The translations under genes and the position numbers were made by a program. From a virus, in IMG/VR virus record IMGVR_UViG_3300032267_001142, positions 64,001 to 128,000 of that record: DNA of 64,000 bases, one strand, 5' to 3'. Shown here one piece after another: positions 11,430 through 56,072 of this stretch; positions within the stretch are counted from its first letter, which is position 1, and each line of letters opens with the position of its first letter. Below the pieces are notes generated by a model. That model searched no databases. It saw nothing but the letters and a program-made list of their open reading frames with translations, and had not been told where the DNA came from.

Positions 11430-11430
11430 T

Positions 11431-12976: not shown

Positions 12977-13005
12977 GTTTTAATTGCTTTTGTTAGCCGC
13001 GTCAA
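12977..13005 (-). promoter_or_regulatory. Sigma70-like promoter, leaderless geometry
   Basis: TTGACG, 17 nt, TAAAAC, 6 nt, ATG 12970. Confidence 0.5.
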
Positions 13006-16778: not shown

Positions 16779-16806
16779 ATTATTACGGAATTGGGTCTGA
16801 AGTCAA
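16779..16806 (-). promoter_or_regulatory. Sigma70-like promoter, leaderless geometry
   Basis: TTGACT, 16 nt, AATAAT, 8 nt, ATG 16770. Confidence 0.5.
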
Positions 16807-19800: not shown

Positions 19801-19818
19801 GTTTTCTTCTGCTGGCAT
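16783..19818 (-). CDS. dnaE: DNA polymerase III alpha (DnaE) catalytic subunit lacking PHP domain, intein-containing
   Basis: GRGSAGGSLV, LFFERFVS, PDVDIDIE, HPSG, KLDLLG, YQEQMMQ, FNK|SHSVAY and a C-terminal OB fold. The N-terminus begins after the PHP region. Confidence 0.95.
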   Translation of the reverse strand: MPAEENFIEQFTDYKFENYGYVRLPSISISDEERAAASAPLGSSNLEFLTCLARAGFTKKIQKSKWAEYAERVKKELALFDKLGFVDYVLLVWKVTSFCDRTGIARDYGRGSAGGSLVFYLLGITANDPIRYGLFFERFVSETRAKKKIVDGVTYIDGSLAPDVDIDIEQERRKEVVAYLHSLYPKKVCKISTLSTLSGKVLIKDIGKIVCGYSDEEMKTVSDMIPKKFGVVEDLEKAKAGSKDFNNWAVKNPEAYDISLRLRDIIRNRGTHPSGYVVSFDEVAEFLPLEKAKSSEEEADINIATSLTMDEVAYLTLKLDLLGVRCCSVVSRVMKSVGIKFDDVNIHDDPVIYDNLQNLNTAHGIFQLEAPTNLKVCREVKPKNLTELADVVAIARPGALSYLEGYAKNNVKADKVHHLFAKILAATRNVCLYQEQMMQLANAIGFSLEQAEVLRRVVGKKKINEVKEWEQKISEKIKEQGLPEELGSMLWKILEESASYSFNKCLSPDTVVETPNGDKMLFDIQIGDEVLGFDTDERVNRYVKVLDKTEAKRELFEVEMEDGKVIKCSMEHKLLCDDMIMRPLRDIISQNLNIVCRDRRVTKVKSYESIGFKTTLDLEVAHKDHNFYADGLVVSNSHSVAYASLSALTTYLKFKYPKEFFCALLQEAKNEPKPVEEITKIQMELRNFGIKLLPPNILKSEMDFTIEGPDIRFGLSMIKGISDKSIAKLNCFRDEFSSKFEIFEAANNAGLTVNVLAALIQSGCFDGVGGSYDRPRLVWEAQVWNLLTDREKKACIDRGEQFKHSLSAVINSLASGIGADGKPVIKPSRMATIKKKSEPFRAIWEMNRKNLEMANFFYERMLLGYSYSHKLSEIFDSPDGSVLYSVEELNGASEGERCSFVAVVSDKPYEGVAQNEKKTRYARWQLSDETGTITALIFATKDGDKISGTKALHDGSLPAKDSIVFCSGKKHGDSIFLDRISDQSLKIYCKFKDVQKDMESNNRALTSDPIP
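17911..18306 (-). mobile_element. Mini-intein (132 aa) in DnaE, no homing endonuclease
   Basis: Starts CLSPDT after YSFNK; block B CSMEH; block F TLDLEV...HNFYADG; ends VVSN before Ser (SHSVAY). Confidence 0.93.
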
Positions 19819-21968: not shown

Positions 21969-22727
21969 TTAGGAGTTCTCCAAAAAGTTGTCAAAACCGA
22001 ATCGCGAAGAAGAGTAGTGTTCTAGATTCGGGCATTCGAGAGTTGAGCGTTTACCGATGCATTTAAGGGCTTGATGTGCTCTGGCGTGAGCCTTAGAGTA
22101 GTAATAAACAGTATGGGCTTTTACTTGTTTAGATTGGTCTACATAACCGTTCAAATAGTGCTGAATCAAACCTTCAAATGGCAGTCCATGCCTCTCGCTA
22201 AAGAAGGTAGGAACCACAGGGAACTCTGGTGTGGCCATATGCGCGTATTCGAGAGTGTTTCTCGCGATAAACGACGAGTAGAATGGTATTCCTAGTGTTA
22301 AATTATCCGTCCACAGTCGCTTAAGTGCTGTGTTGCCTATCCTTGGGCGATAATAAAACCCATGAAGACTCGCGTGAGAGGAGATAGCGATTAAGTCCTT
22401 ATATCCTTGCGAGTTTTTAGCGAATACGATTATACCGCTTTCAGTGCGCAAAGAGTCGGGCGTTTTATCTTCTTCGTTCTGACAGAGGCAAAGTTTCAGT
22501 CCGAAAGTGAACGGAACACCGCACTCTTTCGAGGTTTTGAAGGCCGACCAGAAGCCGGAGATAGATGAGTCTGTGATGACCACTCTCGGCAATTTATGTT
22601 TGGCCGCGATAGAAAAGATACCTACCGGAGCGGGCGTGTTTAGGTCGGGTCTATCTTTCTCGCTCTGAAATCCGATAGTCAAAACCGAGTCGGTTAGGGA
22701 GTGGTCTGAGACAAAAAGAGGTATCAT
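21969..22727 (-). CDS. Stand-alone PHP domain of DNA polymerase III alpha
   Basis: SDHSL, VVITDSSISGFWSAFK, FTFGLKL, FAKNSQGYKDL, RPRI, HTVYY...AHQALKCI all match the DnaE N-terminal PHP domain. Confidence 0.85.
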   Translation of the reverse strand: MIPLFVSDHSLTDSVLTIGFQSEKDRPDLNTPAPVGIFSIAAKHKLPRVVITDSSISGFWSAFKTSKECGVPFTFGLKLCLCQNEEDKTPDSLRTESGIIVFAKNSQGYKDLIAISSHASLHGFYYRPRIGNTALKRLWTDNLTLGIPFYSSFIARNTLEYAHMATPEFPVVPTFFSERHGLPFEGLIQHYLNGYVDQSKQVKAHTVYYYSKAHARAHQALKCIGKRSTLECPNLEHYSSSRFGFDNFLENS

Positions 22728-23757: not shown

Positions 23758-25089
23758 CTAATCGAAATAGACATGACCTGTCTCTTTAAGTCCGTCGTTA
23801 TCAATGACTAGATAAGACTGGCGCGGTCTATTCTTGAGGTTATTAACGCTCGCGTGCATATCGCCTCCGATGACGGTCGAAAACATTACGAATTGAAAAT
23901 CGTTATACTCGACGTGCTCCCAGTGATGCCTGTCTCCGACGATAAACAGCCTCTCTTTGACGCCTATAAGATTTTCTGGGTTTTGCAACAGGAGGCTCTG
24001 AACGTGCGTTTGCAGCTTCGCGTCGCTTGCTGTAGGAACGTAAGCCCTTTCAATAGAGTCCGCACCGTGGTCGAGAAGGAATAGCGTAGTGCCTTCCTTG
24101 AAGGCGGCGGGACGTGATGAGTGATGAAAGAAGTTGAGGTTCTCTTGCTGAGTGAAGGCTTTTTCAAGAGCCCTGAAGAGTGCCATATCACCTTCATAGT
24201 TGTGATTTCCTCCGACCGAATGCACGTCGACGACGGGAATCTGAGAGTATATCATCGAGATGAACTGATATAGACTTTGCAACGCATAATCGAATTGCTC
24301 TTCTCTCACACAATCATAAAGAAGCTCGGTGCCCCTTCCCGTTTTGCCGTTGACGCTGTGAATCAGGTCTCCCAGCCCTAAGATAACTACCTTTTTGTAT
24401 CTATAGGTTCTTGCCGCCGCTCTTTGGAGTATCTTCTCCGCGAACTTCTTAACGCAGGCAACGGTTTTTTCAGTAGTCCAGCTTGGGCGGTTGAACATAT
24501 ACCTTTCATTGCTAGCGCTGCCGAAATGCAAATCACTAAGGCCAATAACTAACACCTCGTCACTTACCTCTTTTGTGGAGGTTTCTATGTGTAGTCTAGG
24601 CACTCTTGCTGGCTTCCAGTTTTCGACAGCCAAGCCGAAAGGGTCAAGCGTTCCATTCTGGAAGGCTTCCCAGTTTTCGGCGCTTTTTTGAGTGGCTTTC
24701 CATAATTCCTTTTCGTAGCTCTGCGCGACTGCCAGCTTCTTGCTCTCTAGGAGATTCGCTGCGCAAGCCTCTACGGGAAGTTCTGTTAACTCTTCGTTAG
24801 AGAGCGGCAGACTGTCACGCGTCAGTCCGTGAACCTTTTTATACTCCTCAAGTATCTTCACAGGTATACCGAATTTAGCTGCGACTTCCTCGGTGGTTTT
24901 TGACGGCGAAAACAGGTTGGAAATATGAGCTACGATATTACGATGAACGGAACCCTTTAGCACTAAAGGCTTAGAGAGACTCTTAAGCGTAGTGATATAA
25001 ACGTCAGTCTCTCCATTATAGACGACGTTTGGCCTTGGTTCTTGTATCGGTTCTTGCACCGGCACTGAGATTTTAGTTTTTCTTGGCAT
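23758..25089 (-). CDS. Calcineurin-like metallophosphoesterase with N-terminal extension
   Basis: SDLHFG, GDLIH, GGNHN, DHG, GDRHH motifs. Confidence 0.8.
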   Translation of the reverse strand: MPRKTKISVPVQEPIQEPRPNVVYNGETDVYITTLKSLSKPLVLKGSVHRNIVAHISNLFSPSKTTEEVAAKFGIPVKILEEYKKVHGLTRDSLPLSNEELTELPVEACAANLLESKKLAVAQSYEKELWKATQKSAENWEAFQNGTLDPFGLAVENWKPARVPRLHIETSTKEVSDEVLVIGLSDLHFGSASNERYMFNRPSWTTEKTVACVKKFAEKILQRAAARTYRYKKVVILGLGDLIHSVNGKTGRGTELLYDCVREEQFDYALQSLYQFISMIYSQIPVVDVHSVGGNHNYEGDMALFRALEKAFTQQENLNFFHHSSRPAAFKEGTTLFLLDHGADSIERAYVPTASDAKLQTHVQSLLLQNPENLIGVKERLFIVGDRHHWEHVEYNDFQFVMFSTVIGGDMHASVNNLKNRPRQSYLVIDNDGLKETGHVYFD

Positions 25090-25549
25090 AATGAATAATG
25101 TCGATATTTTCGTCAGTGTAAAGTTGAGAATACGGTTTGAAAAAGTCAGAGAACTCGGGCAACTCTACATCCCCTTCGTAATCTTTTTTTACAATAGTGA
25201 GTAAAAGGTCGCTGCAATACGGAAAGCATAGCTCGTAGGTTTTCGCGCCGCCAATACAAACGCATCTCTCGCTTGCGAGAGATGGTATATCGCTTGGTCG
25301 AATTACGCGACTATATTCTAGTCCGTTTTTGTTAGGTGAAGTGGGAAGCTGGCCACGATTGCTAACGAGCGTGATTTTTCTTTTCGGAAGCTTGGGTAAG
25401 TCAATATAAGTACGCGCTCCCACAACGCAATCAACGTTGTACTGAGTGACGATTCTAAAAAACTTGAAATCTTGCGGGATTTTCGGCCAAGGAAGGGCGC
25501 TGCCCTTACCGATGTAACCGTTTGAAGATACTGCTGCAATCGCTATCAT
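25073..25549 (-). CDS. folA: Dihydrofolate reductase
   Basis: IAAVSSNGYIGKGSALPWPKIPQDFKFFR, VVGARTY, LPKR, IGGAKTY, YEGDVELP. Confidence 0.93.
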   Translation of the reverse strand: MIAIAAVSSNGYIGKGSALPWPKIPQDFKFFRIVTQYNVDCVVGARTYIDLPKLPKRKITLVSNRGQLPTSPNKNGLEYSRVIRPSDIPSLASERCVCIGGAKTYELCFPYCSDLLLTIVKKDYEGDVELPEFSDFFKPYSQLYTDENIDIIHYAKKN

Positions 25550-31428: not shown

Positions 31429-32388
31429 TTATGAAACTAAATCTGTAATGAGTTCATTATAGCTGTATTGTCTTTTGAACGCAAGCTCTTCGTAACACCG
31501 GCTAGGGGCTGAAACGAACGCTCGTTCAGGCTCTACGATTCCAGAAGAAGAATCAAATACTACCCTACCCATAACGTCGTTTTCGTCAATATCTAAAGCT
31601 TGAGCAAGAGACATAAGCAGTCGTCTTGGCGTTCGAGTCTCTCCACTTGAAAAAACATAGTTTCTCGCTAGCTTTTGTCTACAAACAGACCAAATCAATC
31701 CAATGAAGTCTTTAGCGTGAGACCAATCCTTCCGACTGTCTAAATTGCCAAGCTGTATCGTGTTGTTGTTCTTTTTGAAATCTTTCAGCCAGTCCGAAAC
31801 TTTACGAGAAAAGAAGTCCCTTCCCCTGACTTTGGATTCATGATTGAACATGACGCAGTGAGACGCCCAAACGCCAGACTGTCTAAAAAAATCACACGTT
31901 ACACGGCACGCGGCCTTAGAAAGTCCGTATAGCCCATGAGGCGCAATCGGTGTGTCGATTGTATGCTCCTCGTCTTTTGCCAAATACATCTCGTAACAGG
32001 AGCCGCAGGAAACAAACTTTATGTCAAGGCCGGTCTTTTGAATCGTTTCAAGGATTTTTGAAGGCAACCCCAAGTTACAGTCGAGCATTGTTGCCGCGTC
32101 CCCGTAGTTTGGGCGGCTTTTGCCAGCAAAATTTATAAAGCAAAAGGGGCGATAACGTAGCAATAACTCTGCTATCCTTGCAGAGAATTCAGAACTGTGA
32201 GGTTTCGTTAGCGTTGAAACCCCAACGACTACGACTCGTCCCTTCCGACACTCTGGAGGAACCCATCCGTTTTTCAAATCTTTTGGCCTCATCAATAATA
32301 CAACGGTGAGACCTTCTGACAGAAGCTTCTCCGTCATCAGAATCCCGTCTTGGCCAGCGCCACCAGTGATGAAGACTACATCGTTCAT
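31429..32388 (-). CDS. gmd: GDP-mannose 4,6-dehydratase-like SDR enzyme
   Basis: ITGGAGQDG, YGLSK, MFNHES, LGNLDSRKDWSHAKDF. Confidence 0.85.
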   Translation of the reverse strand: MNDVVFITGGAGQDGILMTEKLLSEGLTVVLLMRPKDLKNGWVPPECRKGRVVVVGVSTLTKPHSSEFSARIAELLLRYRPFCFINFAGKSRPNYGDAATMLDCNLGLPSKILETIQKTGLDIKFVSCGSCYEMYLAKDEEHTIDTPIAPHGLYGLSKAACRVTCDFFRQSGVWASHCVMFNHESKVRGRDFFSRKVSDWLKDFKKNNNTIQLGNLDSRKDWSHAKDFIGLIWSVCRQKLARNYVFSSGETRTPRRLLMSLAQALDIDENDVMGRVVFDSSSGIVEPERAFVSAPSRCYEELAFKRQYSYNELITDLVS

Positions 32389-33143
32389 TGCTCTTTGTGG
32401 ACGGTTGGTAATGGTATGGCGTTCAGCAGAAAATAGTTAAAATCGAATTCGAGAGATTGGGTTTCTTCGTTCCATTGAAACGAACAGCGACCGAAGTGTT
32501 TCTTCTGATATTCTACTTTGTCTTTCCCAACGCTATTAATCCAGCTTAGATGCTTTACATGGGCTATCGCTTTGGGGACTACCACAGTCGGAAGAGACTG
32601 ATACGAAACCTTTTCGCCGAATCTATTCAAATAGTTGACGTCATTATCCCAATAGAACTCGTCAATATTATGGTTGACTACCTCGGTTTTGAAGATTCTC
32701 GGAGGACAAAATCCGTCAATCCATTGCTTCTCATCAAAGACGCAGTTTTTGAAATTTATGGAAAGCCAAACCGCGAAAGGTTCGTTTTTCAAAAAGCTGA
32801 TTATACCCTTTATCTGTTCTAGCGTATAAAGCTCGTCCGCGTCGACTAGCCAGACGTAATCTACGCCGATTTCTTTGAAATAATGCAACGGTATGTTCCT
32901 CGCCTCGTGCTCTGACAGCGGCTTCGGAGAGTTTATTACTGTGGCCTTCGAGCTGGCTAGCATTTCTGAAACTTTTCTCAAAGTCGGGCCGTTATCTTTC
33001 TCGGGGAACCCCACAAACTGCGAGCTTATCACGCAGATTTCTTCGATTTCTTCAAGTTCGTCGCTTGCCTGCCGCCAAGCGGGCAAAGACCTCTCCAAGA
33101 AAGTTTCACAGTTATACGCGCAAAAAATGATACCAATTTTCAT
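32385..33143 (-). CDS. GT-A (GT2-like) glycosyltransferase
   Basis: IIFCAYNCE; VWLVDADELY DxD motif. Confidence 0.7.
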   Translation of the reverse strand: MKIGIIFCAYNCETFLERSLPAWRQASDELEEIEEICVISSQFVGFPEKDNGPTLRKVSEMLASSKATVINSPKPLSEHEARNIPLHYFKEIGVDYVWLVDADELYTLEQIKGIISFLKNEPFAVWLSINFKNCVFDEKQWIDGFCPPRIFKTEVVNHNIDEFYWDNDVNYLNRFGEKVSYQSLPTVVVPKAIAHVKHLSWINSVGKDKVEYQKKHFGRCSFQWNEETQSLEFDFNYFLLNAIPLPTVHKEQ

Positions 33144-33832
33144 CTGTTTGTATTATTTATGTCAAAGGCTGAGATTTCACCTGAATGTACGACGTAGTCT
33201 TTACCTACCGTAGCAACTCTATATCCCATATCATACATTCTGTCTCCAAAGCTATTTTCTGTGTCGTAGCTTCTGAAAGAATGAAAATTAGAACGAAAGA
33301 ACTCGAAATCTTGTAAAGATGGATTGAGAGAATAGCCGTGCCCGCGTCTGTGACCGATACGGTCGATGCCGCGCTCGCATATAAAATATTCCGTGCCATC
33401 GCTTAAGGTTCTCGGAGTATACATCTCCAACCGGCGCGACAGTACGGATTTTATTACGCCTTCGGATTCGTTAATAATTCTGAACGATTCGGCAAGGATA
33501 TTGCCTTTTCTGACGTATTCCCAATCGTCTTCTAGATGATAAATATATCGTGTCTTGACATTGTCCCAAATGCGATTAAGGCTAGCGGCCAACCCTTTCT
33601 CCGCGTCGTTTTTTGCTGTAAGAACCTCGATAGTCGCGAAATTTCCAAATAAAACATCAAGCTCGCGTTTCATAATCCGAACCTCTTCCTCGCTAGAGCT
33701 ATCGTCAGACAGGATGACGGAGCCAATACTCGTGACATCTAAACACGCTTGAGAGAACGCGCGCATCGTCTTAAGAAATAGCTCCAACCTCTTGCAAGAG
33801 GTTATCGTCAGGGTTACGTCGCCGCTAGTCAT
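33140..33832 (-). CDS. GT-A (GT2-like) glycosyltransferase
   Basis: TITSCKR, ILSDDSS, YHLEDDW, SLNPSL. Confidence 0.75.
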   Translation of the reverse strand: MTSGDVTLTITSCKRLELFLKTMRAFSQACLDVTSIGSVILSDDSSSEEEVRIMKRELDVLFGNFATIEVLTAKNDAEKGLAASLNRIWDNVKTRYIYHLEDDWEYVRKGNILAESFRIINESEGVIKSVLSRRLEMYTPRTLSDGTEYFICERGIDRIGHRRGHGYSLNPSLQDFEFFRSNFHSFRSYDTENSFGDRMYDMGYRVATVGKDYVVHSGEISAFDINNTNR

Positions 33833-34631
33833 TGCACTCTTCCCCGCGATGTAATACGTTATGAACGAACTTGCCTATACTCATTCCGTGTATGCGCTCA
33901 AAAGTTGCGTCGCCGTTATTATGCACAAAATTTTTGACCTTTGTAGTTTTGCAAATAAAGTGGTAAACTAAACTTCGACCAACCCCAACGAATTTTCTTA
34001 TTCCTACATCATAGAGCTTCTTTGCTAAGTCGGGGTCGCTACCGAAGCCTGGCGAGAATTCTGTAGAGTATCCTCCTACTTTTATCCAGTTATCCCTACT
34101 GACGATGCAAGGGGGCCAAGTCGAACCTTTCCTATTTGGAGATTGCTCTCTCAGGGCGGTCAGGTCTTTTATTAAGTCCGATTCTCTGAAAGTCTCGATG
34201 CTTTGACCATAATCTCTTGGAGCCAGACAACAAGGGTTATCACCCCGTGGCTCTATCATTGTAGAAGAAATAAACGCCTCGTTAGTGCCGATGTCTCTTG
34301 CACTAGCAAATAAAGCTAGCTCCACGTCCCAGCTTGGCAGGGCAAACATATCATCGTTAAAATAGATTGTTTGTTTTCTAGACGAAATCGAGAACGCGGC
34401 GTTCATAGATTCACAAACCCCGACGTTATTTTTGGTGTATGTGAACTTAAGACCTTCGGATTGAGCCCATTCTAAAGTCCCGTCAGTCCCCTCGTTAATG
34501 TGTAGCACAATTTCATGAGGGAATCGGCTATAATCTCTGATGCTCCTTACGCAAGCTTGAACGTATTTCAGGTTGTTCCAAGTAGGAATCAATACACTAA
34601 ACCCGTCCTGTATATCGTGATGCAAACTCAT
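33825..34631 (-). CDS. GT2 family glycosyltransferase
   Basis: VLIPTWNNL, NEGTDGT, NVGVCESMN, FNDDM, GGYSTEF...SDPDL. ATG 34631 follows the upstream TAG. Confidence 0.85.
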   Translation of the reverse strand: MSLHHDIQDGFSVLIPTWNNLKYVQACVRSIRDYSRFPHEIVLHINEGTDGTLEWAQSEGLKFTYTKNNVGVCESMNAAFSISSRKQTIYFNDDMFALPSWDVELALFASARDIGTNEAFISSTMIEPRGDNPCCLAPRDYGQSIETFRESDLIKDLTALREQSPNRKGSTWPPCIVSRDNWIKVGGYSTEFSPGFGSDPDLAKKLYDVGIRKFVGVGRSLVYHFICKTTKVKNFVHNNGDATFERIHGMSIGKFVHNVLHRGEECND

Positions 34632-34633
34632 AT

Positions 34634-35434
34634 CTAATCGCGGAGACTTAGGCGGTGGTTCACCGTCGTTTTCTTTGTCAACTCTTCCAGTTTTGTCGGC
34701 ACTGATACCTCTTCTCCACACTCAGTTTTCCAGTGGCTATTCCAAAATGACCTATTTAATTCAGCCCTTCTTTCTAGATTGACGTAGCCGGTGTGGACGA
34801 CGAAAGGCAAACGCTTCCTAGCGAGAATCTCTAGCCTCTCTTCCGTAGATAGAGACTGAATAATGTTCGGGAGCGTGTGAGCTAAATCCCCTTTGCCGTC
34901 TAGCAATTCGCAGCCGTCAGATTTGGTGATATCGTGCGTTCCGTCGGGCTTCTTCGCAAAATTTACTACCCCTCTATGATAGCCAGAGCGATGAATATAC
35001 CATTTCTGACCCACATCAGAAACATGATACTCGTCGCCATAAAGATTGACAACCGGAACGAAAGCCGCTGGGAAACCAAAAGTCAGCATTTTCTCGGCCA
35101 AAGTGTCCCAAAGTCCATTAGCTATTTGCCAATAGGGAATATACTCGTCAAGGTCTAGACCTATTTTGAATAGACTAGAGGTTCTTTGTAAGGCGGCGTC
35201 TTTTAGCATCCCATCCATTTCAGGATGCGTATAAGGAATGTTTTCGCTTACGATTTTGAGCTTGCCACCGCAATACAGACGACCACACTCCTCTACCCTT
35301 GCTAAGGTGTCGTCTTCGCTTTTATTGACGGCAATAACTACTTCATCTGCTATCCGCGCAAACCGGCGAAGAGCCTGTCCGAAATTGAAACCGCCCTTGA
35401 TGAGGTTGAAGCCTGATGTATAAATCGAGAACAT
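34634..35434 (-). CDS. GT-A (GT2-like) glycosyltransferase
   Basis: EVVIAVNKSEDDT; GLDLDEY DxD motif. Confidence 0.7.
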   Translation of the reverse strand: MFSIYTSGFNLIKGGFNFGQALRRFARIADEVVIAVNKSEDDTLARVEECGRLYCGGKLKIVSENIPYTHPEMDGMLKDAALQRTSSLFKIGLDLDEYIPYWQIANGLWDTLAEKMLTFGFPAAFVPVVNLYGDEYHVSDVGQKWYIHRSGYHRGVVNFAKKPDGTHDITKSDGCELLDGKGDLAHTLPNIIQSLSTEERLEILARKRLPFVVHTGYVNLERRAELNRSFWNSHWKTECGEEVSVPTKLEELTKKTTVNHRLSLRD

Positions 35435-35481: not shown

Positions 35482-37635
35482 TTAAGCTTCACATGATTTA
35501 CAGGCCAAAATGCTTCTTCCTAGCTCTTGGGCGGGAGACGTGCTTCTCTGATAATACAAAGTTTTTACTCCTAATTTCCAAGCCTCAATCAGCAACGCGT
35601 TGACTTCTTTTACTGAAGCTTTTGGATGAATCATTAGATTGATTGACTGAGACTGGTCAATATATTTTTGGCGTTGAGCGGCTTGAATGATGATTTCTTT
35701 TTGGCTAATCTCTCCGAAGGTTTTGAAGACATCCCTCTCGTTGTCAGTCAAGAAATCGAGATGCTGCACTGAGCCGTCGTGAATGAGGATGTTTTGCCAT
35801 ACTTCCTGAGTATCCTTGCTGTGCTTTTTAAGCACTTCTTTCAAATATGGGTTTTTGTATGTGAATTTGCCTTTGGCCAAGTCTTTGACGAAGTAGTTAG
35901 AGTTAAGCGGTTCGATTGATGGGGAGACCTGCCCCAGAATGAACGAGGATGACGTTGTAGGGGCTATCGCCATCGTCGTGACGTTACGCAGCCCATAACC
36001 CTTCAAAAGCGGTGGCTCGCCAAATAGAACGGCCCTAACTTTATTAGCTTCGTGGTTTCTTTCGGCCAAGAACTTGCTGATTTTCACGTTCCACATTTTT
36101 GCGTCGAATGACTCAAAAGCAATGCTTTTTGATTGAAGGAACGAGTGCCAGCCTAATGTTCCCATTCCTAGGGCGCGTTGATTGACGGCAAAGCGGTATG
36201 CAGCTTCCATGAAGCGGATGCCTTTAACTTTGTCGATGTATTCCGACATGACCGCGTCCAAAAAGAGCGCGAAGACTTCTACCGCATCCGTCTGCATCCA
36301 TTCTTCTGCATGCAATAGGTTCATTGAACCTAAATCGCAAACAAAAGACTCGTCCCTATCTGAAGCTAGGGCTATCTCAGAACAGTTATGAACTAGGATG
36401 TTGTTCGCGAAGAAATTTTCAGTCTTTTCTACTGTGATATCGTAAACGGCTTCGACGTGAGTGTATCTTTTAATTTTTAGCGTATTAATGAACCGCTCAG
36501 ATAGTCCCGAAGCATTACCGTTAGCACTTTGTCTAAGAATATCGTCTTCTTTTAAGTCCTGCGCTTCAACGTATCCTCGGTTTTGTGTGTAGATTTTATG
36601 TTCAGGCGTGCATTTTATGACGTTGCCTTGCTCGTCCTCAATTTCAATAATTTCCGTCGACTCTCCCGTTTGCGAGAAGAGCTTAACCGAAGAATAAACG
36701 TCCTTGCCGGTTTCGATGTCAAAGGATTTTACTTCTACTGGTTTATCCATGTAAAAATCCAAATCCTTCATTCGGACAGTTAGTTCTTCACCTTCTACAC
36801 GAATTTGGACTAATGTATCGCCGGTCAGACACAGGTTGGAGGCGTGAATCTTCATTCCTTTATCTTTGTAGACTTGCGGGGCGTTGTTGTTCACCGTGTC
36901 CGAGAACATGATGTAAGGATAGCCAGACTCAAATCTCTTCTTGATGATTTTCGCCCAAAGCTCGCGCTTGTCTTTGTCGCCTGAAATCATGGACTCCATC
37001 CACGCATCGGAAACCGTGACGCCGATGCTCATATGTTGGATAGCGTGACCCTCGTTGCGAATCTGTAGAAACTCGGCAATATCTGGGTGTTCGACGGGAA
37101 GATACGCCGCAAAGTTGCCACGACGAACTCCAGACTGCGATACGACTTCAGTAATTACGTCATATATCTCCATGAAATGAACGGGACCGCTAGAGCGTCC
37201 ACCACCAGAAACTTTAGCGCCGCGCTCACGCAATGCCCCGAAATATCCAGAAGTGCCGCTGCCGTGCTTCGACATCATTCCTATCTCGGAGGCTTTATAG
37301 AGAATCTCCCCCATATCATCTCCGATATAAGAGCCATTACAACTAATCGGAAGTCCTCTTTTGAGGCCGAAGTTCGCCCACACCGGAGAGGCTAAAGAGT
37401 AGTAACCTTTCTTCATGTATCCGACGAACTTCTCCGCGAAGCCTTTTAGCGCTTCGTAGTCGGTGTCGCCGCTTTCGACTTTTCCATTACGGAAGTCTTC
37501 ATAGTCTTTCAGTAGAATCGCTTGGGCAGCGTCAGCTATCTCCTGAATGCGGACTTCTGGAGACTGTCCATTTTGCAAATATCCGCGCTCAAGAAATGTG
37601 CGGGATTTTTCGTTAAGCCAATAAAAATCTTTCAT
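35482..37635 (-). CDS. nrdA: Class I ribonucleotide reductase alpha subunit, no ATP cone, intein-containing
   Basis: SLASPV, LPISC, GSGTS, RRGNFAAYL, SNL|CSEI, IAPTTSSS, QSQSINL, KTLYY. Confidence 0.95.
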   Translation of the reverse strand: MKDFYWLNEKSRTFLERGYLQNGQSPEVRIQEIADAAQAILLKDYEDFRNGKVESGDTDYEALKGFAEKFVGYMKKGYYSLASPVWANFGLKRGLPISCNGSYIGDDMGEILYKASEIGMMSKHGSGTSGYFGALRERGAKVSGGGRSSGPVHFMEIYDVITEVVSQSGVRRGNFAAYLPVEHPDIAEFLQIRNEGHAIQHMSIGVTVSDAWMESMISGDKDKRELWAKIIKKRFESGYPYIMFSDTVNNNAPQVYKDKGMKIHASNLCLTGDTLVQIRVEGEELTVRMKDLDFYMDKPVEVKSFDIETGKDVYSSVKLFSQTGESTEIIEIEDEQGNVIKCTPEHKIYTQNRGYVEAQDLKEDDILRQSANGNASGLSERFINTLKIKRYTHVEAVYDITVEKTENFFANNILVHNCSEIALASDRDESFVCDLGSMNLLHAEEWMQTDAVEVFALFLDAVMSEYIDKVKGIRFMEAAYRFAVNQRALGMGTLGWHSFLQSKSIAFESFDAKMWNVKISKFLAERNHEANKVRAVLFGEPPLLKGYGLRNVTTMAIAPTTSSSFILGQVSPSIEPLNSNYFVKDLAKGKFTYKNPYLKEVLKKHSKDTQEVWQNILIHDGSVQHLDFLTDNERDVFKTFGEISQKEIIIQAAQRQKYIDQSQSINLMIHPKASVKEVNALLIEAWKLGVKTLYYQRSTSPAQELGRSILACKSCEA
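36385..36831 (-). mobile_element. Mini-intein (149 aa) in NrdA, inserted immediately before the catalytic Cys
   Basis: CLTGDT start, CTPEH block B, VYDITV...NFFAN block F, LVHN end, +1 Cys of NLCSE. Confidence 0.95.
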
Positions 37636-37641
37636 ATAAGT

Positions 37642-38613
37642 TTAGAACAAATCGTCTGCCGTAAATGCTTTTGCTTTTTTAGCATAATCCACGGGGCGCT
37701 TGAAAAAGAAGTCGGTCGCGTTATTGCCGAGCACCTCTTCGTCCATCCATTCAAAATCACGAGCAAGCTCAGGGTTGATTTCGTAAATCTTGGAGTAGCC
37801 AATCTGCTGAAGCGAATCGTTGATTCGCGACTTGACATACTCTTTCAGCACGTCGGGATTCATTCGGGGTCCGACGTAATCTCCAATCATCCAATCAATT
37901 ATCTTCGATTCGGCTTTGAAAGCGTCCGCCGCCTCGGCCTTGATTCGCTCTTCCAGCTCCGCGTCGAATAGCTCAGGATACTCTTCTCGAAGCACGTTGA
38001 CCAGCTTGATACCGACCTGAGCGTGAATAAGCTCCTCGTTTTTTGTATAAAGGACTTGTTGGTTTGTATCTTTAAGAAGATTTTTGAATCTTCCGAACCA
38101 CAAAACCGTATAAAACTGGCTGAACAGAGACACATTCTCGATAAAGAGCGTGAACAAAATCAACGCATAGATGTAATTCTTCTTCGAGTTATCGTAAAAC
38201 CGGTGTGTGTATTTGCGTAGATAGTTTACGCGGCCAGATATGACGGCTTCTTTTAGATTTTCCTCGAAAATATCTTCTAGCTCAAGCTCCTTCAGAAGCC
38301 TTTCGTAAGCGTTATTATGAATGACTTCTACGTTAGCCATAACGTAGCCCAAGTCGGTGATGGACGGGTGCGGAAGATTGTCTCCAAGTTTCGCCCAAAA
38401 CTTTTTCACCGCGACCTCGATTTGCCCAATCGCAGAAAGCGTCCTAACTATCACCTGCTTTTCAAGTGGAGTAAGGGCGGTCTTAAAGTCTTGCTTGTCG
38501 CTCTGAAAATTGAACTCTTTATCGGTCCAAAAGCCGTTATGCATCGCCTCAATAAACTGCTCTGTCCAAGGGTAGAGATTCGGCTTGCGAGATACCTGTT
38601 CTTCAAATAGCAT
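37642..38613 (-). CDS. nrdB: Class I ribonucleotide reductase beta subunit
   Basis: FWTDKEF, EVIHNNAY (radical Tyr), ENVSLFSQF, EELIH, DFFFKRPVDY. Confidence 0.95.
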   Translation of the reverse strand: MLFEEQVSRKPNLYPWTEQFIEAMHNGFWTDKEFNFQSDKQDFKTALTPLEKQVIVRTLSAIGQIEVAVKKFWAKLGDNLPHPSITDLGYVMANVEVIHNNAYERLLKELELEDIFEENLKEAVISGRVNYLRKYTHRFYDNSKKNYIYALILFTLFIENVSLFSQFYTVLWFGRFKNLLKDTNQQVLYTKNEELIHAQVGIKLVNVLREEYPELFDAELEERIKAEAADAFKAESKIIDWMIGDYVGPRMNPDVLKEYVKSRINDSLQQIGYSKIYEINPELARDFEWMDEEVLGNNATDFFFKRPVDYAKKAKAFTADDLF

Positions 38614-39853: not shown

Positions 39854-40945
39854 TTAGTTGGCGATGATGCTGGTCAGAGAGTCCGCTGTCTTTTCCCAAG
39901 AAAACTCGCTCTGGAGCTTTTTACCAGCAGCGTTTTCCTTATTGTTCAGCTTTCTTGCTAGGGCTTTTTCACAAGCTTCGATGAATGCCTCTTCTTCCCA
40001 GTCAAAGATGTTGCCTTGGTTGAAAGGCGCTCCTTGCTGAAAAAACACACCGTCGTACGCAGGAATCTTCTTGCTCGGCTGTACAAGAACGGCGTTTTCG
40101 TCATTTGCCCAGTCCTTCATTGCGGTGCAATTATGAATGACACCGTGCTTTCCTAGGGCAAGACAGTGAAAAGACGGAAGAGAGAATCCCTCTGCGCCAG
40201 ACATATCAATAACGATGTCCGTTGCGTTGTAAGCCTCGTTAAGTTCTCCCAGAGTCCTTGAAAAAGGAAGAACATTCACATTGAACGGCTTAGCGCCGCC
40301 AAATAAATCGGCATAAATCATCTGATGGTTCTCTGCCGAGAAATGAGGGTTCGCAACGTGGGTATGTAGGATTACATCTCTACGGTTTTTGTATTTCTTA
40401 ATCCAAGCCTTGATTGCTTTCGCGTGACGCTTTCGATACTCGAATTTTCCAAATATAGAGAACACCGTTACCTCTTTTGGATAGTAGTCTTTTCCAGTCT
40501 CGAAAAAATGTTTATTGTCGAAGCCTAGAGGAACGTAATTGATGTTTTTCAGACCAAATTCCTCGAATTTAGACTTAGCCGAGCGCGAGGTTACTACAAC
40601 ATTATCGTATGACGATAAGATAGCCAGCTCTTGCTGTGTCGGGGAGTCCAACTCGTAAAACGTAATCAGGTTTGAGTGCTTGCTGATTCGAGCTTCGCTT
40701 CCCGCGATATGCCAGAGACGCAACTCCGGTATATCTCGGTCTATTTTTGATGCTCCTCTCGCTATTCCGTCAGATAGCTTCTGGCGAAAATCCCCAGTTA
40801 GCTTATTGTAAGCAGACAAATCGGCTTGACCGCCAATAGGGTAGACGGACAACAGATTGTCGCGCTCCATTAGGACTCTGGCGATGTTATACGCGCAGAA
40901 CCCGAAGCTTACGGTATTGAATGGGGCTGAGAAGTTGAGCTTCAT
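39854..40945 (-). CDS. GT4-like (GT-B) glycosyltransferase
   Basis: VPLGFD, FGKFEYRK, MSGAEGFSLPSFHCLALGK. Confidence 0.8.
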   Translation of the reverse strand: MKLNFSAPFNTVSFGFCAYNIARVLMERDNLLSVYPIGGQADLSAYNKLTGDFRQKLSDGIARGASKIDRDIPELRLWHIAGSEARISKHSNLITFYELDSPTQQELAILSSYDNVVVTSRSAKSKFEEFGLKNINYVPLGFDNKHFFETGKDYYPKEVTVFSIFGKFEYRKRHAKAIKAWIKKYKNRRDVILHTHVANPHFSAENHQMIYADLFGGAKPFNVNVLPFSRTLGELNEAYNATDIVIDMSGAEGFSLPSFHCLALGKHGVIHNCTAMKDWANDENAVLVQPSKKIPAYDGVFFQQGAPFNQGNIFDWEEEAFIEACEKALARKLNNKENAAGKKLQSEFSWEKTADSLTSIIAN

Positions 40946-41326: not shown

Positions 41327-41902
41327 GCCTTTTTTCACTTTATCTTTGAGGACTTCCAAAGCTTTGTTATGAACAATTACCGTCCCCCATATGGAAAGGC
41401 CGACGTTTTTTGCTATTTTCTCGAAGGTCATCGGCTTCTTTCCGCCAGAGAGATATCTCAGCTTGAGAACTTTATTAGCTCGCCTAGTTAAGCGGTTATC
41501 ACTTTCAGCCGAAAGCTCTTTTTTCACAATAGCTAGAGCTTCTTCGTGAGCTTCTTCGCTTCTTTCTAATGGGACGCCTCCCAAGAAATCGTCGTCAACG
41601 TGAACTAAATTATGAGTTCTAGACTCGAATTTCTTGAAGGAGGTCATTCTCGCAAATTTAGTCTGCGCAAACAACCAAGTTGAAAACTTAACCTTCCTAT
41701 CGGGCCTGAACGAATCGCAAGATTTCCAAATAATAAGATAGAAGTCTTCGTCTAGTATATCTCGCTGAAGTTCGTCAGGGAGCTTCCTTCTCTCTGAGCG
41801 GAATATGGCTAAATGCCTAGTATAAAGCTCTTTAATAGCGCTGTTATCGCCTTCAAGTCTGACCTTTTCGGCCAGTTCCTCATCAGAAACAGTGCTATTC
41901 AT
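41315..41902 (-). CDS. Phage-encoded sigma-70 family (small, regions 2+4) sigma factor
   Basis: SDEEL...KELYTRH, FRPDRKVKFSTWL (region 2), VLKLRY...TFEKIAKNVGLS (region 4 HTH). Confidence 0.85.
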   Translation of the reverse strand: MNSTVSDEELAEKVRLEGDNSAIKELYTRHLAIFRSERRKLPDELQRDILDEDFYLIIWKSCDSFRPDRKVKFSTWLFAQTKFARMTSFKKFESRTHNLVHVDDDFLGGVPLERSEEAHEEALAIVKKELSAESDNRLTRRANKVLKLRYLSGGKKPMTFEKIAKNVGLSIWGTVIVHNKALEVLKDKVKKGLQS

Positions 41903-42515
41903 GTGATAGGTAGTAATCGACGATTCTGTTTACTTGCGGAGACAGCTCCGCGAGATTCATTCTTTCGTCAGTGTTTACGTTTTGAGCGACGATTCTTATA
42001 TCGGCGGCTGAGATGACTTTAGGATTGTTCAGTTCTTCGGACTGATTGGCTGGTGGAACCAAGTTCCCGTCACAATCAAATCTGGAAATATGGACAAGCA
42101 ATCCGCCTTGGCTTTTGACCCACGAAACTTCATCGTTTTCGTATTCATCGAATCTTACGTCAGTGATGACTGGAACGAATGGCTGGTCGGCTTCGTTCGC
42201 CGCCTTCTGTATTTGCTTGCTGACGAGGCTCGTCCAATACTGGCCTTGAGAAACGGCGCGTTTAATCTTACCTACAGCTACCATTAAGTCTCTAACGAGT
42301 TCTTTTTGTTCAGCCGTGCAGTTGAAGATATCAAATGAACAAAGCTCAGAAATGAATGGCGCGGTTTTCTTTTTTAGTTCGTCGGCTAGAGCGAATCTTT
42401 TCGCAACGATTCCGCGAGAGGCAAACTCTCTAATCAGGAGTCGGCAAAATGTGTCTTTGCCTGCGGTAGCTACGCCAGAAAGCGCAAGTGGTTTATAGTG
42501 TTTGGTTTTTAGCAT
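41895..42515 (-). CDS. Deoxynucleoside monophosphate kinase
   Basis: SGVATAGKDT, FALADELK, ITDVRFDEYENDE. Confidence 0.85.
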   Translation of the reverse strand: MLKTKHYKPLALSGVATAGKDTFCRLLIREFASRGIVAKRFALADELKKKTAPFISELCSFDIFNCTAEQKELVRDLMVAVGKIKRAVSQGQYWTSLVSKQIQKAANEADQPFVPVITDVRFDEYENDEVSWVKSQGGLLVHISRFDCDGNLVPPANQSEELNNPKVISAADIRIVAQNVNTDERMNLAELSPQVNRIVDYYLSHE

Positions 42516-42973
42516 GTCTTTTGTAAAATGATGGACTCAAGCTCGGGTGAGTTTACCTGAATTAGTTTAATTTTGAATTCTTTGGCCAATTCCAAAGAGA
42601 GTGGATTCCTTTTGTAAATCTCATCATATACCACCAATGGTATTCTGTATTTCGCGATTTCCGTGAGGCAATCTGGGCACGGAAGCATCGTGCAGGCGAT
42701 GAGCTTGATTTCCCCTATTCTTGCGTAACCTAGAGCGTTACGCTCAGCGTGGATAACCCTTGCTAACCTCTTGTCCCTATCGGACCAGTCGACTTCTACA
42801 CCGCTTGGCGGTCCATTGTAACCTACTCCTGCCACGGAATAGTCCCAACGCAGCGCGCATGCGCCAACTTTAACGTATGGGTCTTCTGACCTGAACGTCG
42901 CGGCGACTGCTAGATTCATAGCGTGTCTTCCCCATCCAATTCTTTTTTTCTCGGCTAAAAATACTTTCATCAA
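42509..42973 (-). CDS. dCMP deaminase
   Basis: RSEDP..KVGAC, GYNG, HAERNA, PCPDC. Confidence 0.9.
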   Translation of the reverse strand: MMKVFLAEKKRIGWGRHAMNLAVAATFRSEDPYVKVGACALRWDYSVAGVGYNGPPSGVEVDWSDRDKRLARVIHAERNALGYARIGEIKLIACTMLPCPDCLTEIAKYRIPLVVYDEIYKRNPLSLELAKEFKIKLIQVNSPELESIILQKTC

Positions 42974-52650: not shown

Positions 52651-53595
52651 ATGAGTACTAATAAAGACCTATCTGTCGGAGTTATCGTCGGGCGCTTTCA
52701 ATGCGTGAATTTACACGCTGGGCACCGTTTCATTTTCGATGAGGTTATACGAAAACATAGCCGCGTCATTGTCTTCCTCGCTACAGGAGTACTGAAGGCG
52801 ACCGGAAATAATACGCTCTCCTATGCGGAACGCGAAAAGATGATACGCGAAGTATATCCTGACTTGGAAATTCATGAGTTGGAGAATCATCAGTCTGACC
52901 ACGAGTGGAGTCTGAACTTGGATAGGAAAATAGCTAGAGCAATACCTTTCGGAGTAAAGGCGCTGTTGTATTGTGGCAGAGAAGGTTTTAACAAGTACTA
53001 TTCGGGGAGTATAAGCGTGAACGTATTAAAAGCTCCAGAAGAGATTCTTGATTCTGCAACCGACCAAAGAAGAGAGGCTATATTCACTCCCATTTCGGAG
53101 AGAAATGCGTCGTTCCGAGCTGGCGCAATTTCGGCGGCTAATTCGCGCCCACCTACAGCCTATCAGACAGTAGACGTGGCGATACTTGATAAGAGCGGAC
53201 AAATCTTGTTGGCCGGAAAGCCGACGGACCCGCCGCATCTGTGGAGATTTGTGGGGGGTTTTTCCGAGCCTAGCTCACCGTCGCTAGAGCACGACGCTCT
53301 GAAAGAGGCGCGTGAAGAAGCGGGGCTTGAGGTCGCAAATCCCAAATATGTAGGTAGCCTTCTAACTGGCGACTGGAGATATCGTTGGGAAAAGGACAAA
53401 ATCAAGACCGCGCTATTTACGGTAGATTACGTCTTTGGAGCTGCGGTAGCGGGCGATGACGTTAGCCGCGTGCGGTGGTTTAACATCAAGGACGTGACAC
53501 TCGACATGATTGTTGAAGGCCATAGGCCGCTATGGGAAATGCTCAAAAGACATCTCGAAGATAAGAGTTGTCGTCCTGCACAAAGCGTAGTATAA
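52651..53595 (+). CDS. nadM: Bifunctional NMN adenylyltransferase / Nudix ADP-ribose pyrophosphatase (NadM-Nudix)
   Basis: GRFQCVNLHAGH, SATDQR, VGGFSE...ALKEAREEAGL Nudix box, AGDD. Confidence 0.9.
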   Translation: MSTNKDLSVGVIVGRFQCVNLHAGHRFIFDEVIRKHSRVIVFLATGVLKATGNNTLSYAEREKMIREVYPDLEIHELENHQSDHEWSLNLDRKIARAIPFGVKALLYCGREGFNKYYSGSISVNVLKAPEEILDSATDQRREAIFTPISERNASFRAGAISAANSRPPTAYQTVDVAILDKSGQILLAGKPTDPPHLWRFVGGFSEPSSPSLEHDALKEAREEAGLEVANPKYVGSLLTGDWRYRWEKDKIKTALFTVDYVFGAAVAGDDVSRVRWFNIKDVTLDMIVEGHRPLWEMLKRHLEDKSCRPAQSVV

Positions 53596-53605
53596 AAGAC
53601 CCATC

Positions 53606-55036
53606 ATGAAGCCAAAAATGAAAGACAACACGGTATTCCTACTTGATTCTTACAAAATCGCGCATCCTAAAATGTTGCCCGAAGGAACAACTGGCGCATT
53701 TTCTTATGGCGAATCGCGTAAAGGCGCTCGTTACCCCTATACTGCGCTTTTCGGTCTTAGATATATCCTGCAAACTCATTTGGCTGGGCCGCGAGTTACT
53801 CCTGAAAAAATCGCTCAAGCGAACGAGCTTCTGACTGAGCATTTCAAATTCTGCGGTGATGTTTATGACGCCCGCATCTGGGAATACATTCTGAGAGAGT
53901 ATAACGGGCGACTTCCGTTGACAATTCGCGCCGTTCGTGAAGGAACGAAAGTGCCTACCGCTAACATGATGGTCAGTGTAGAGACTAGCGACAAAAACTG
54001 CGCGTGGCTCGTCGGTGGCGTTGAAACGGTATTGCAGCAAATGTGGTATCCTTCTACGGTTGCGACGCGTAGTCGATGCATCATCGACATCATCAAGGCT
54101 TACTTCAAGAGAACTGTTGATGACGATTTGCAGTGGCTTGCGGATTATTATTTGCACGACTTCGGGCAGAGGGCCGCGACGTGTATGGAGGCGGCTGGCC
54201 TAGGGGGAATGTCGCATCTACTCAACAGCAAGGGCACGGACACTCTTATGGGTATGGCTTATGCTATTGACGAATATGACGCAAGCCCTAAAGATTTGGC
54301 ATATTCGGTTCCTGCTAGTGAGCACCTGATTGCCACGTCGCTAGGTAAAGCTGGAGAATTTGCGGTAGCCAAGAGGCTCTTGCAGCTTTTTCCGAAGGGC
54401 ATATTGTCGCATGTTTCGGATAGCTATAACATCACTGAGGCAATCAGGATGTATAACGAAGACCCCGAGTTCCGCCGACTTATCTTGGCGAGGGATGGTA
54501 AATTCGTAGCTAGACCCGATAGTCCACGCTTTGAGCAGGACACGCCGCAAGACCAGATTCTTTGGATTACCCAACAGTGGGACAAGGGTTACGGCCACCG
54601 CGTAAACACTAAGGGCTATAAAGATTTGGACCCTCATGTCGGAACTATCTACGGAGATAGCCTTACAGAGGACAATATTGAGGACACGCTTAGTCTGCTA
54701 GAACAAAACGGTTATAGCGCGTTGGCGAGCGTTTTCGGATGTGGTGGTTATTTAATCCAGCGGATGCACCGCGATACTCAGCGTCAAGCTTTCAAGTGCA
54801 GCGCCCTCATGCACGACGGCGAGTGGCGCGATATCTGTAAAGAGCCGCTGGATAAGACGAAGGTTTCCAAGAAAGGGCGGCTCAAGCTCATCAAGAACGA
54901 ATATGGAGACTTTGAAACGGTTCCGTTTGAAGTGGACAAGCCCGACCAGATGGTTACGGTGTTCAAGAACGGCAACATGATGAACGTGGAAAACTTCGCG
55001 CAAATCAGACGCCGCATCAACGGAGAAATAGAATGA
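53606..55036 (+). CDS. nadV: Nicotinamide phosphoribosyltransferase (NAMPT)
   Basis: LDSYKIAH, HDFGQR, GTDT, SVPASEH, VSDSY, RPDS, GCGGYL, FKCS. Confidence 0.93.
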   Translation: MKPKMKDNTVFLLDSYKIAHPKMLPEGTTGAFSYGESRKGARYPYTALFGLRYILQTHLAGPRVTPEKIAQANELLTEHFKFCGDVYDARIWEYILREYNGRLPLTIRAVREGTKVPTANMMVSVETSDKNCAWLVGGVETVLQQMWYPSTVATRSRCIIDIIKAYFKRTVDDDLQWLADYYLHDFGQRAATCMEAAGLGGMSHLLNSKGTDTLMGMAYAIDEYDASPKDLAYSVPASEHLIATSLGKAGEFAVAKRLLQLFPKGILSHVSDSYNITEAIRMYNEDPEFRRLILARDGKFVARPDSPRFEQDTPQDQILWITQQWDKGYGHRVNTKGYKDLDPHVGTIYGDSLTEDNIEDTLSLLEQNGYSALASVFGCGGYLIQRMHRDTQRQAFKCSALMHDGEWRDICKEPLDKTKVSKKGRLKLIKNEYGDFETVPFEVDKPDQMVTVFKNGNMMNVENFAQIRRRINGEIE

Positions 55037-55212
55037 GCGCCGGAAAGGGAGACAAGCCTAGAAATCTAGGCCCGAACTTCAAGAAGAACTACGACTTGAT
55101 TAAATGGAAAAAGACCTCGCAAACAGACCACAAGAGTCGATGTGGCAAGCCTTCAACAGAATTGAAGAAGAACTCGAAAAAGAAATCACCGAGTGGGAAC
55201 GAGCCAACCTAG
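55033..55212 (+). CDS. Small basic GKGDKPR-type phage protein (59 aa), absent from the ORF track
   Basis: ATGA-coupled to nadV: MSAGKGDKPRNLGPNFKKNYDLIKW...; its TAG overlaps the thyA GTG. Confidence 0.55.
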   Translation: MSAGKGDKPRNLGPNFKKNYDLIKWKKTSQTDHKSRCGKPSTELKKNSKKKSPSGNEPT

Positions 55213-56072
55213 TGCAAAACAACGCCGATAAAAGATATTTCGAGCTAGTCAATAAAATACTAGCCGAAGGAGAATGGAAAGGCAACAGGACGGGTGTAGA
55301 TTGTCTAGCGATTGCGGGATTCATGTTTGAACATGATATGAGCGAGGGCTTCCCTCTACTCACCAGCCGTAAGTTGCCGTTCAAAAGCACTACGGTCGAG
55401 CTAGAGTTCTTCATTAAGGGCCTCAGAAGCAAGAAGTGGCTTCAGGACCGAGGGTGTCATTATTGGGACGGGTGGTGCAATCCACAAAAAGTGGCATACG
55501 CCCATGACGAAGAGACTAAGCGCAGGATGGCAGAAGAGGACGATTTAGGTCTTATTTACGGAACGCAATGGAGAGATTTCCGTGACCCAAGCATGCCAGA
55601 CGGAAGTGGTATCGACCAACTCAAAGAAGCCGTTAATAAACTCAAAACTAATCCGCTCGACAGGAGAATGCTTGTCTCGGCTTGGAACCCGCTAGCTATA
55701 CCTCATGCGGCGCTTCCTAGCTGTCATGATGGGTTCAGAATCTCCGTCGTGAATAACAAGCTAAACTTAGCTTGGACACAGCGCTCAGTTGATGTTTGTT
55801 GCAATCAGAGCATTACAACTTACGGTCTCCTGTTGCATCTTTTAGCTAAAGAAGCGAATCTGCAAGAAGGAAAGTTGATAGGATTTTTGATGGATTGTCA
55901 TATCTACAAAAACCATTTAGACGGTATACAAAAACAACTATCTCAAAAAACTCACAACCTTCCGAGAGTTCAGACAAAGAATTTTAGTTCGATATTCGAC
56001 TGGACATATAGCGATACGTCGCTATTAGATTATCAACATAGCGAGCCGATTAGATACGAGGTTGCAATATAA
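55212..56072 (+). CDS. thyA: Thymidylate synthase-family enzyme with atypical QRSxD...N region
   Basis: NRTG, GFPLLT, YGTQWR, RRMLVSAWNP, LPSCH, QRSVD, DCHIYKNH. GTG 55212 (TAGTG overlap) gives a normal-length N-terminus; the ORF track start is 55104. Confidence 0.85.
   Translation: MQNNADKRYFELVNKILAEGEWKGNRTGVDCLAIAGFMFEHDMSEGFPLLTSRKLPFKSTTVELEFFIKGLRSKKWLQDRGCHYWDGWCNPQKVAYAHDEETKRRMAEEDDLGLIYGTQWRDFRDPSMPDGSGIDQLKEAVNKLKTNPLDRRMLVSAWNPLAIPHAALPSCHDGFRISVVNNKLNLAWTQRSVDVCCNQSITTYGLLLHLLAKEANLQEGKLIGFLMDCHIYKNHLDGIQKQLSQKTHNLPRVQTKNFSSIFDWTYSDTSLLDYQHSEPIRYEVAI

Follow-up and report, generated by a model that had tools for sequence, protein, structure and literature searches.

The DNA analysed here (the window) is a stretch of 64,000 nucleotides corresponding to positions 64,001 to 128,000 of the IMG/VR virus record IMGVR_UViG_3300032267_001142, a complete genome of 186,105 bp with terminal repeats. 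A ThyA-family thymidylate synthase (TS) gene is located on the plus strand (55104..56072) and encodes a protein of 322 amino acids when read from the ATG at 55104. It is the single ThyA gene of the complete 186,105-bp genome, in which neither ThyX nor a second TS was found; since a phage has no strict need of its own TS, this sole-copy status is no proof of dTMP synthesis. The protein matches the whole Pfam profile PF00303 (Thymidylat_synt; positions 1-266 of 266, E 6.2e-77, 258.8 bits for a cut-off of 24.3), clears the threshold of TIGR03284, the NCBIfam equivalog for "thymidylate synthase" (227.3 bits for a cut-off of 108.35), and is assigned to phrog_160 (thymidylate synthase) in PHROGs. 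It scores below the cut-offs of narrower equivalog models (five PRK01827-type models and one PRK13821), as does P0008, a relative with a full-length loop. The AF2 model of the protein has a pLDDT of 91.3 overall and of 96, 93 and 99 for the three 10-residue blocks covering residues 221-250; its top structural neighbours are all dTMP synthases (E. coli TS: TM 0.95, rmsd 1.6 A).

The 5' end of the gene may be misplaced. Alignments of relatives to the protein begin at about residue 37, and a basic ORF of 59 amino acids (55033..55212, plus strand, predicted from the sequence), without any Pfam family in the Pfam scan, lies between the NAMPT gene and the TS gene. The three genes form a chain of overlaps (window positions 53606-55214), in which the NAMPT stop overlaps the ATG of the 59-aa ORF (ATGA, 55033-55036) and the TAG of that ORF overlaps a GTG at 55212. 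As most relatives start at the position of this GTG, the ATG at 55104 may be the wrong start, and GTG 55212 (V37) may be the true one, giving a protein of 286 amino acids as in most relatives; the 36-residue N-terminal helix of the model may in that case be spurious. The gene downstream of TS is Pyr_excise-like. The NAMPT gene belongs to a NAD salvage pair (52651-55036, NAMPT and an NMNAT-Nudix fusion); the genome also encodes a PARP-like protein with WGR, PARP regulatory and catalytic domains (genome positions 162323-163576; L044:18323-19576), and SIR2 and ADP-ribosylglycohydrolase genes were seen near TS in two relatives (L052 and L009, respectively).

The window contains further genes of nucleotide metabolism, all on the minus strand: dihydrofolate reductase (DHFR; 25073..25549; PF00186, E 3.7e-20), dCMP deaminase (42509..42973; PF00383, E 3.9e-13), a dNMP-kinase-like protein (41895..42515; PF21448, E 2.4e-5, under the family cut-off), and both subunits of ribonucleotide reductase, the large one containing an intein (35482..38613; PF02867, PF14890, PF00268). 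The presence of DHFR and dCMP deaminase had been reported in a first-pass annotation made from the sequence, which considered that both favour a dUMP pathway; we found both genes and judge the remark correct. Intein signatures (Hint / Intein_splicing) were observed in a DnaE-type polymerase (16783-19818) and in the ribonucleotide reductase large subunit (35482-37635), and the PHP domain of the polymerase is encoded by a separate gene (21969-22727). Glycosyltransferase genes occur at 12980-14197, 32385-34721 and 39854-40945. In a tblastn search with the terminase, no match to a cultured relative exceeded 27% identity.

The distinctive feature of this TS is a remodelled loop which, with the start of helix J, occupies 55791..55823 (plus strand) and reads D230-V-C-C-N234-Q235-S236-I-T-T239-Y240, as delimited by alignment with E. 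coli ThyA. It is part of the peptide WTQRSVDVCCNQSITTYGLL, encoded at 55776-55835 in the ORF 55104-56072(+); the first-pass annotation had singled out 55779-55823, which spans TQRSVDVCCNQSITT. Residues were mapped with MAFFT on E. coli ThyA (NC_000913), T4 gp42 and the best 120 relatives. In this map, E. coli D169 corresponds to D230, L172 to C233, G173 to N234, F176 to Q235, N177 to S236, S180 to T239 and Y181 to Y240, and L174-P175 are deleted. HMMER alignments against solved TS chains place the two-residue gap after CCNQ and set the serine opposite the base-reading asparagine. Both alignments thus confirm the initial observation of a D-to-Y stretch two residues shorter with Ser at the Asn177 position, and the catalytic Cys (LPSCH, C207) and the QRSxD and DxHIY motifs, described at the same time as intact, are so. 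Asn177, which in TS forms hydrogen bonds to O4/N3 of dUMP, is therefore aligned to Ser236. In E. coli ThyA, 12 residues are located within 6 A of C5 of dUMP, G173 and N177 being two of them (PMC13326640, in part), and Asn177 is counted as a catalytic residue for which a limited number of substitutions is tolerated (PMC4304848, in part). Helix J begins at S236 in the AF2 model of the window TS and at G199 (equivalent to G173) in the model of the long-loop P0008 (pLDDT 93.8), which indicates that the first turn of the helix is absent from the short form. Two changes in the folate pocket relative to E. coli (L172 to C and F176 to Q) are common to the long-form sisters.

Whether relatives share the deletion was a question raised by the first-pass annotation, and many do. 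Among the top 120 relatives (55-76% identity), 31 have the short loop, the other 89 having a full-length loop of the types CCG[LF]PQN, YLGIPAN or ALGLPFN. An extra search scored on residues 212-262 recovered one more short form, bringing the count to 32 of 183 protein clusters; ten spellings of the loop are represented among these 32, and 18 of them share VCCNQSITTY. N234, Q235, T239 and Y240 are invariant in the 31 short forms; position 236 is Ser in 27 and Thr in 4. The glycine at 173 and the canonical Asn177 are likewise invariant in all 89 long-form relatives. The columns that separate the 31 short forms from the 89 long forms are solely within the loop, no co-varying change being seen elsewhere in the enzyme.

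At the DNA level, the short loop is present in 3 of 37 IMG/VR loci and is genuine in 6 of 9 pattern matches from JGI metagenomes; the three other matches (L055, L058 and L060) were dropped as chance matches in unrelated bacterial genes. This gives nine short-form loci on other contigs, seven of them with distinct sequences. The codons of the cassette vary across loci: serine is encoded by AGC/AGT in two and by TCA in two others, and asparagine by AAT or AAC. Such synonymous turnover implies that the peptide rather than the DNA has been conserved, over a long time. For the nine short-form coding sequences, dN/dS ranges from 0.035 to 0.154 in the 14 of 36 pairs for which it was computable (dS was saturated in 20 pairs, and 2 pairs were identical). 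A search of sequencing runs found the stretch in one run alone, probably that of the source sample, and listed no RNA run; Logan contigs of this run, which are an independent assembly, contain 1.00 of the sampled words. An assembly error or a decaying pseudogene, for which nothing speaks beyond the oddity of the motif, is scarcely credible in view of these results: the same loop recurs in 32 protein clusters and nine other DNA loci, the frame is open, dN/dS is far under 1, and the AF2 model is confident. The decaying gene envisaged at first is thus contradicted both by the spread of the motif and by the selection acting on it.

The catalytic set is complete. C146, H147, E58 and Y94 of E. coli ThyA correspond to C207 (codon at 55722..55724, plus strand), H208, E99 and Y152, residues that do not vary in any of the 31 short or 89 long forms. 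The phosphate-binding arginines R21, R126', R127' and R166 are present as R62, R187, R188 and R227, and the folate site is represented by D230, W121 and W124 (E. coli D169, W80 and W83) and by the C-terminal tail V320-A321-I322. All 31 short forms retain R21 (except one row, itself incomplete), E58, W80, W83, Y94, R126, R127, L143, C146, H147, Q165, R166, S167, D169, H207, Y209 and the C-terminal V-A-I/V.

ThyA homologues with other substrates or products carry known signatures. The residue at 177 determines whether dUMP or dCMP is used (PMC8670742, in part; PMC13326640, in part); N177D marks the use of dCMP, L143D/E a hydroxymethyl product and D169N the 5-hydroxy-dCMP synthases (PMC13326640, in part). 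In the MetaGPA study, H147 is a second position that tracks cytosine modification, being His in unmodified contigs (PMC8670742, in part). The window TS has Ser at 177 (Ser or Thr among the short forms), which sets it apart from dCMP methylases of the N177D type; with S236, L204 and a C-terminal tail, it also differs from dCMP hydroxymethylases of the T4 gp42 type, and D230, found in 31/31 short forms, separates it from 5-hydroxy-dCMP synthases of the RB69 gp48 / DLP3 gp80 type. Its H147 equivalent is His. A natural N177D was observed elsewhere in the data set: P0161, closely related to the canonical ALGLPFN group, reads GLPFDIASY and is thus of the dCMP type in an otherwise ordinary TS clade.

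These signatures bear on the proposal, made in the first-pass annotation, that the enzyme supplies a modified pyrimidine handle for the glycosyltransferases. In this reading it would be a hydroxymethylase or hydroxylase making 5hm-dUMP, 5hm-dCMP or 5ho-dCMP, on which the glycosyltransferases of the window would glycosylate the DNA. Several glycosyltransferase genes are indeed present, and TS homologues feed DNA glycosylation in other phages (PMC13326640, in part). Within the enzyme, the proposal conflicts with the methylase-type residues: L143 is Leu in 31/31 short forms where hydroxymethylases have D/E, D169 is retained where 5hodCMP synthases have Asn, H147 is of the methylase type, N177D is absent, the C-terminal tail is present (T4 gp42 has none) and W80 is kept (K in gp42). 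It conflicts equally with the context. The glycosyltransferases of the window lie away from TS and adjoin an NDP-sugar dehydratase/epimerase gene (GDP-mannose-dehydratase type, 31429-32388); no recognisable base-hypermodification genes emerged when 60 ORFs of the window and 144 from elsewhere in the genome were scanned against Pfam; and sisters with Asn and a long loop occur in the same kind of genome, nucleotide-metabolism genes being alike in short- and long-loop genomes. In addition, DHFR, which is needed only where dihydrofolate is produced, is linked to TS: it immediately precedes the short-form TS in L051, and is found 2.1 kb upstream of it in L052 and less than 1 kb upstream in L056. 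It is present in two of the three other short-form records (the remaining one is 39% complete), each of which has a single TS. The modified-handle proposal is consequently unsupported, and we regard it as very improbable.

Loop-restricted differences, a common genomic context, a methylase-type catalytic set and the linkage to DHFR point instead to a working dTMP synthase. From sequence comparison, the window gene probably encodes, on balance, a functional folate-dependent enzyme of this kind with a rebuilt base-reading loop, which would convert dUMP to dTMP and release dihydrofolate, to be recycled by the phage DHFR. In the proposed mechanism, deletion of L174-P175 would remove the first turn of helix J and bring Ser/Thr to the new helix start, and the new invariant Asn234 would take the place of Gly173, a residue that adjoins the pyrimidine. 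Ser and Thr are both typical of helix starts. The invariance of Asn234 at a glycine site near the base, together with the tolerance of Ser or Thr at 236, leads us to infer that Asn234 recognises the base and that residue 236 caps the helix. Asn234, possibly with a water molecule held on Ser236, would supply the hydrogen bonds to uracil O4/N3 that Asn177 makes elsewhere, and Ser/Thr236 would cap the shortened helix; the specificity residue would then be shifted in sequence and the same in function. For the short-form TS, the substrate and product assigned here, like the role given to Asn234, are thus deductions. The interleaving of short and long forms on the tree (see below) is as expected if the two are functionally interchangeable.

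An argument against dTMP synthesis is that none of the 89 long forms departs from the canonical Asn. Asn229 mutants of L. casei TS reportedly include some in which kcat is strongly cut and the exclusion of dCMP relaxed, several remaining partly active, and such behaviour suggests that Ser at this position could lower activity or fidelity. For the same reason, relaxed or switched base specificity remains the main rival: dCMP would be accepted alone or beside dUMP and converted to 5-methyl-dCMP, the phage DNA then containing 5-methylcytosine. Position 177 sets the choice between the two bases (as above), the side chains of Ser/Thr and of Asn can each donate or accept a hydrogen bond, and Asn229/N177 mutants bind dCMP according to PDB titles (1nja is N229C with dCMP). 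On the other hand, there is no Asp at or near 177, the dCMP-using homologues cited being all N177D (PMC13326640, in part), and H147 is His, as in the unmodified MetaGPA contigs (PMC8670742, in part). Further points against it are that dCMP deaminase is retained in short-form genomes (it occurs in genomes of both loop forms), that co-varying changes elsewhere in the enzyme are absent and that Q165 is retained. Q165 fixes the orientation of the base-reading Asn. We consider a change of base specificity unlikely. Were specificity relaxed, these uncultured large phages would be able to make 5-methylcytosine by a route not recognised so far.

The distribution of the two loop forms was examined on trees from which the loop columns had been excluded. 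Short forms are scattered over these trees: 12 (FastTree) or 11 (IQ-TREE) changes of label between short and long are needed, and the best tree with all short forms in one clade falls 234.6 log-likelihood units short (p-AU 0.002; LG+G4, quick search), so that such a clade is rejected. Repeated origin of a nine-residue cassette that includes a deletion is improbable, which makes intragenic recombination the simpler explanation. The loop form requires 13 label changes on a tree of the 82 post-loop residues and 18 on a tree of the 190 pre-loop residues, for about 27.8 on either tree with shuffled labels; the better fit of the loop form to the 3' part of the gene than to its 5' part is suggestive only.

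A possible, though somewhat unlikely, origin of the short loop, compatible with either function, is that it was shaped by homing endonucleases: a 6-nt deletion and flanking changes would have destroyed the site bound by an I-TevI-like GIY-YIG endonuclease in the most conserved stretch of TS, the resulting allele being spread by recombination or co-conversion. When the T4 td gene is translated, exon 1 ends with ...QRSVDVFLG and exon 2 begins with LPFNIASY, so that its group I intron sits between the Gly (Asn here) and the Leu-Pro (missing here), in exact coincidence with the G-to-N change and the loss of LP. I-TevI binds 20 bp centred on this insertion site through its DNA-binding domain and cuts 23-25 nt upstream (PMC2988022, in part). 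Free-standing ORFs of the GIY-YIG/NUMOD3/I-TevI_DNA-bd type lie directly beside TS in 2 of the 7 distinct short-form loci (L052, at 6284-7102, and L057, at 82-876) and in four of the 31 long-form loci examined (L003, at 10848-11618, L012, L019 and L026; duplicate contigs L011, L027 and L028 omitted), and HNH genes were found within two ORFs of TS in two further long-form loci (L014 and L037). The rejection of a single short-form clade and the fit of the loop form to the 3' part are in keeping with such an origin. Several observations weigh against it. A test for association between the short form and an adjacent endonuclease gene was negative (2/7 vs 4/31), the window TS itself has no adjacent endonuclease gene, and no intron at the td site is present in the 37 IMG/VR loci. 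Moreover, these endonucleases have no known target site, ordinary phage recombination accounts equally well for the mosaic tree, and introns and indels may favour the site for unrelated reasons. The cassette codons have also diverged, and any spread of the short-loop allele is thus old. That the base-specificity Asn was relocated (from N177 to the G173 site) and, in addition, that this rewiring arose and spread by erasing the site of an I-TevI-like endonuclease is, as a combined scenario, quite unlikely; if true, a selfish-DNA arms race would have reshaped the active site of an enzyme. In L019 (10001-12353), the TS loop reads ALGAGYNIANY, with A-G replacing L-P, and the TS and DHFR genes are separated by an inserted endonuclease gene (GIY-YIG/NUMOD3).

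Other departures from the usual TS architecture were noted among the relatives, and those of P0093, P0099, P0079, P0102 and P0034 leave the loop untouched. In P0093, P0099 and the TS of Bacillus phage 015DV002, an in-frame insertion of 200-280 amino acids follows the YGxQW motif in the small domain, and a motif common to the insertions (RCYN..YK.YGG.GI.V...W..FE.F) is shared across very distant phages; the inserted segment may be a domesticated or parasitic module, DNA-binding or endonuclease-like. The two-piece match of the 015DV002 gene (L050:498-2192) was considered as a loop intron and rejected, since it corresponds to such an insertion of about 280 amino acids. P0079, P0102 and P0034 are long-form TS with a Cys-rich N-terminal extension of 70-130 amino acids bearing CxxC pairs, probably zinc-binding. 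No Pfam families were found for the extra segments of P0093, P0099, P0121 and P0079.

Asn177 is regarded as invariant in dTMP synthases and as diagnostic in separating phage ThyA homologues that make T from those that make modified C. A conserved natural form with Ser or Thr at 177, otherwise canonical, means that rules based on position 177 only can misfile enzymes, and the short-form TS may be viewed as a natural experiment in rebuilding base recognition. If the endonuclease link holds, pressure from mobile elements would have fixed escape alleles that are non-synonymous and alter the structure of an essential loop of the active site. We found no account of a natural ThyA clade combining Ser/Thr177 with a shortened loop in the literature searched, which lies mostly outside subscription journals.

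Among known systems, bacterial ThyA (E. coli ThyA and L. casei TS; 2tsc, 1tys, 4tms) has the same fold as the window TS at about 35% identity and shares with it the full set of catalytic and phosphate-binding residues as well as the C-terminal tail. The window TS differs by G173N, the deletion of L174-P175, N177S, S180T, a helix J shorter by one turn, L172C and F176Q. The long-loop sisters of related uncultured large phages (e.g. P0008, CCG[LF]PQN) are closer, being 66-76% identical to the window TS, with an active site identical elsewhere and the same context (DHFR, dCMP deaminase, thymidylate kinase); they differ in keeping G173, L-P and N177, and are interleaved with the short forms on the tree. 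Phage T4 Td is likewise a phage dTMP synthase encoded beside DHFR, and its intron site (G | LP) is the site of the short-form indel; it has, however, the canonical GLPFN loop and a group I intron with I-TevI, whereas the window TS gene is intronless.

The specificity Asn is also replaced in engineered mutants of Asn229 (L. casei) or N177 (E. coli) (1jmf-1jmi, 1bq2, 1nja, 1njc), and the sequence behind 1jmi has Ser at the same position in the HMMER alignment. These mutants carry point changes in a full-length loop; the window loop, in contrast, is shortened, contains a second Asn, and is natural and conserved. Enzymes of the T4 gp42 and RB69 gp48 type resemble the window TS in being phage members of the ThyA family with an altered position 177. 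In the alignment used here, T4 gp42 has D at both 143 and 177 and K in place of W80, and it lacks the tail; the window TS shows none of this. More generally, enzymes of the gp42/RB69 gp48 type combine N177D with L143D/E or D169N and are without the tail (PMC13326640, in part), and the window TS has none of these features.
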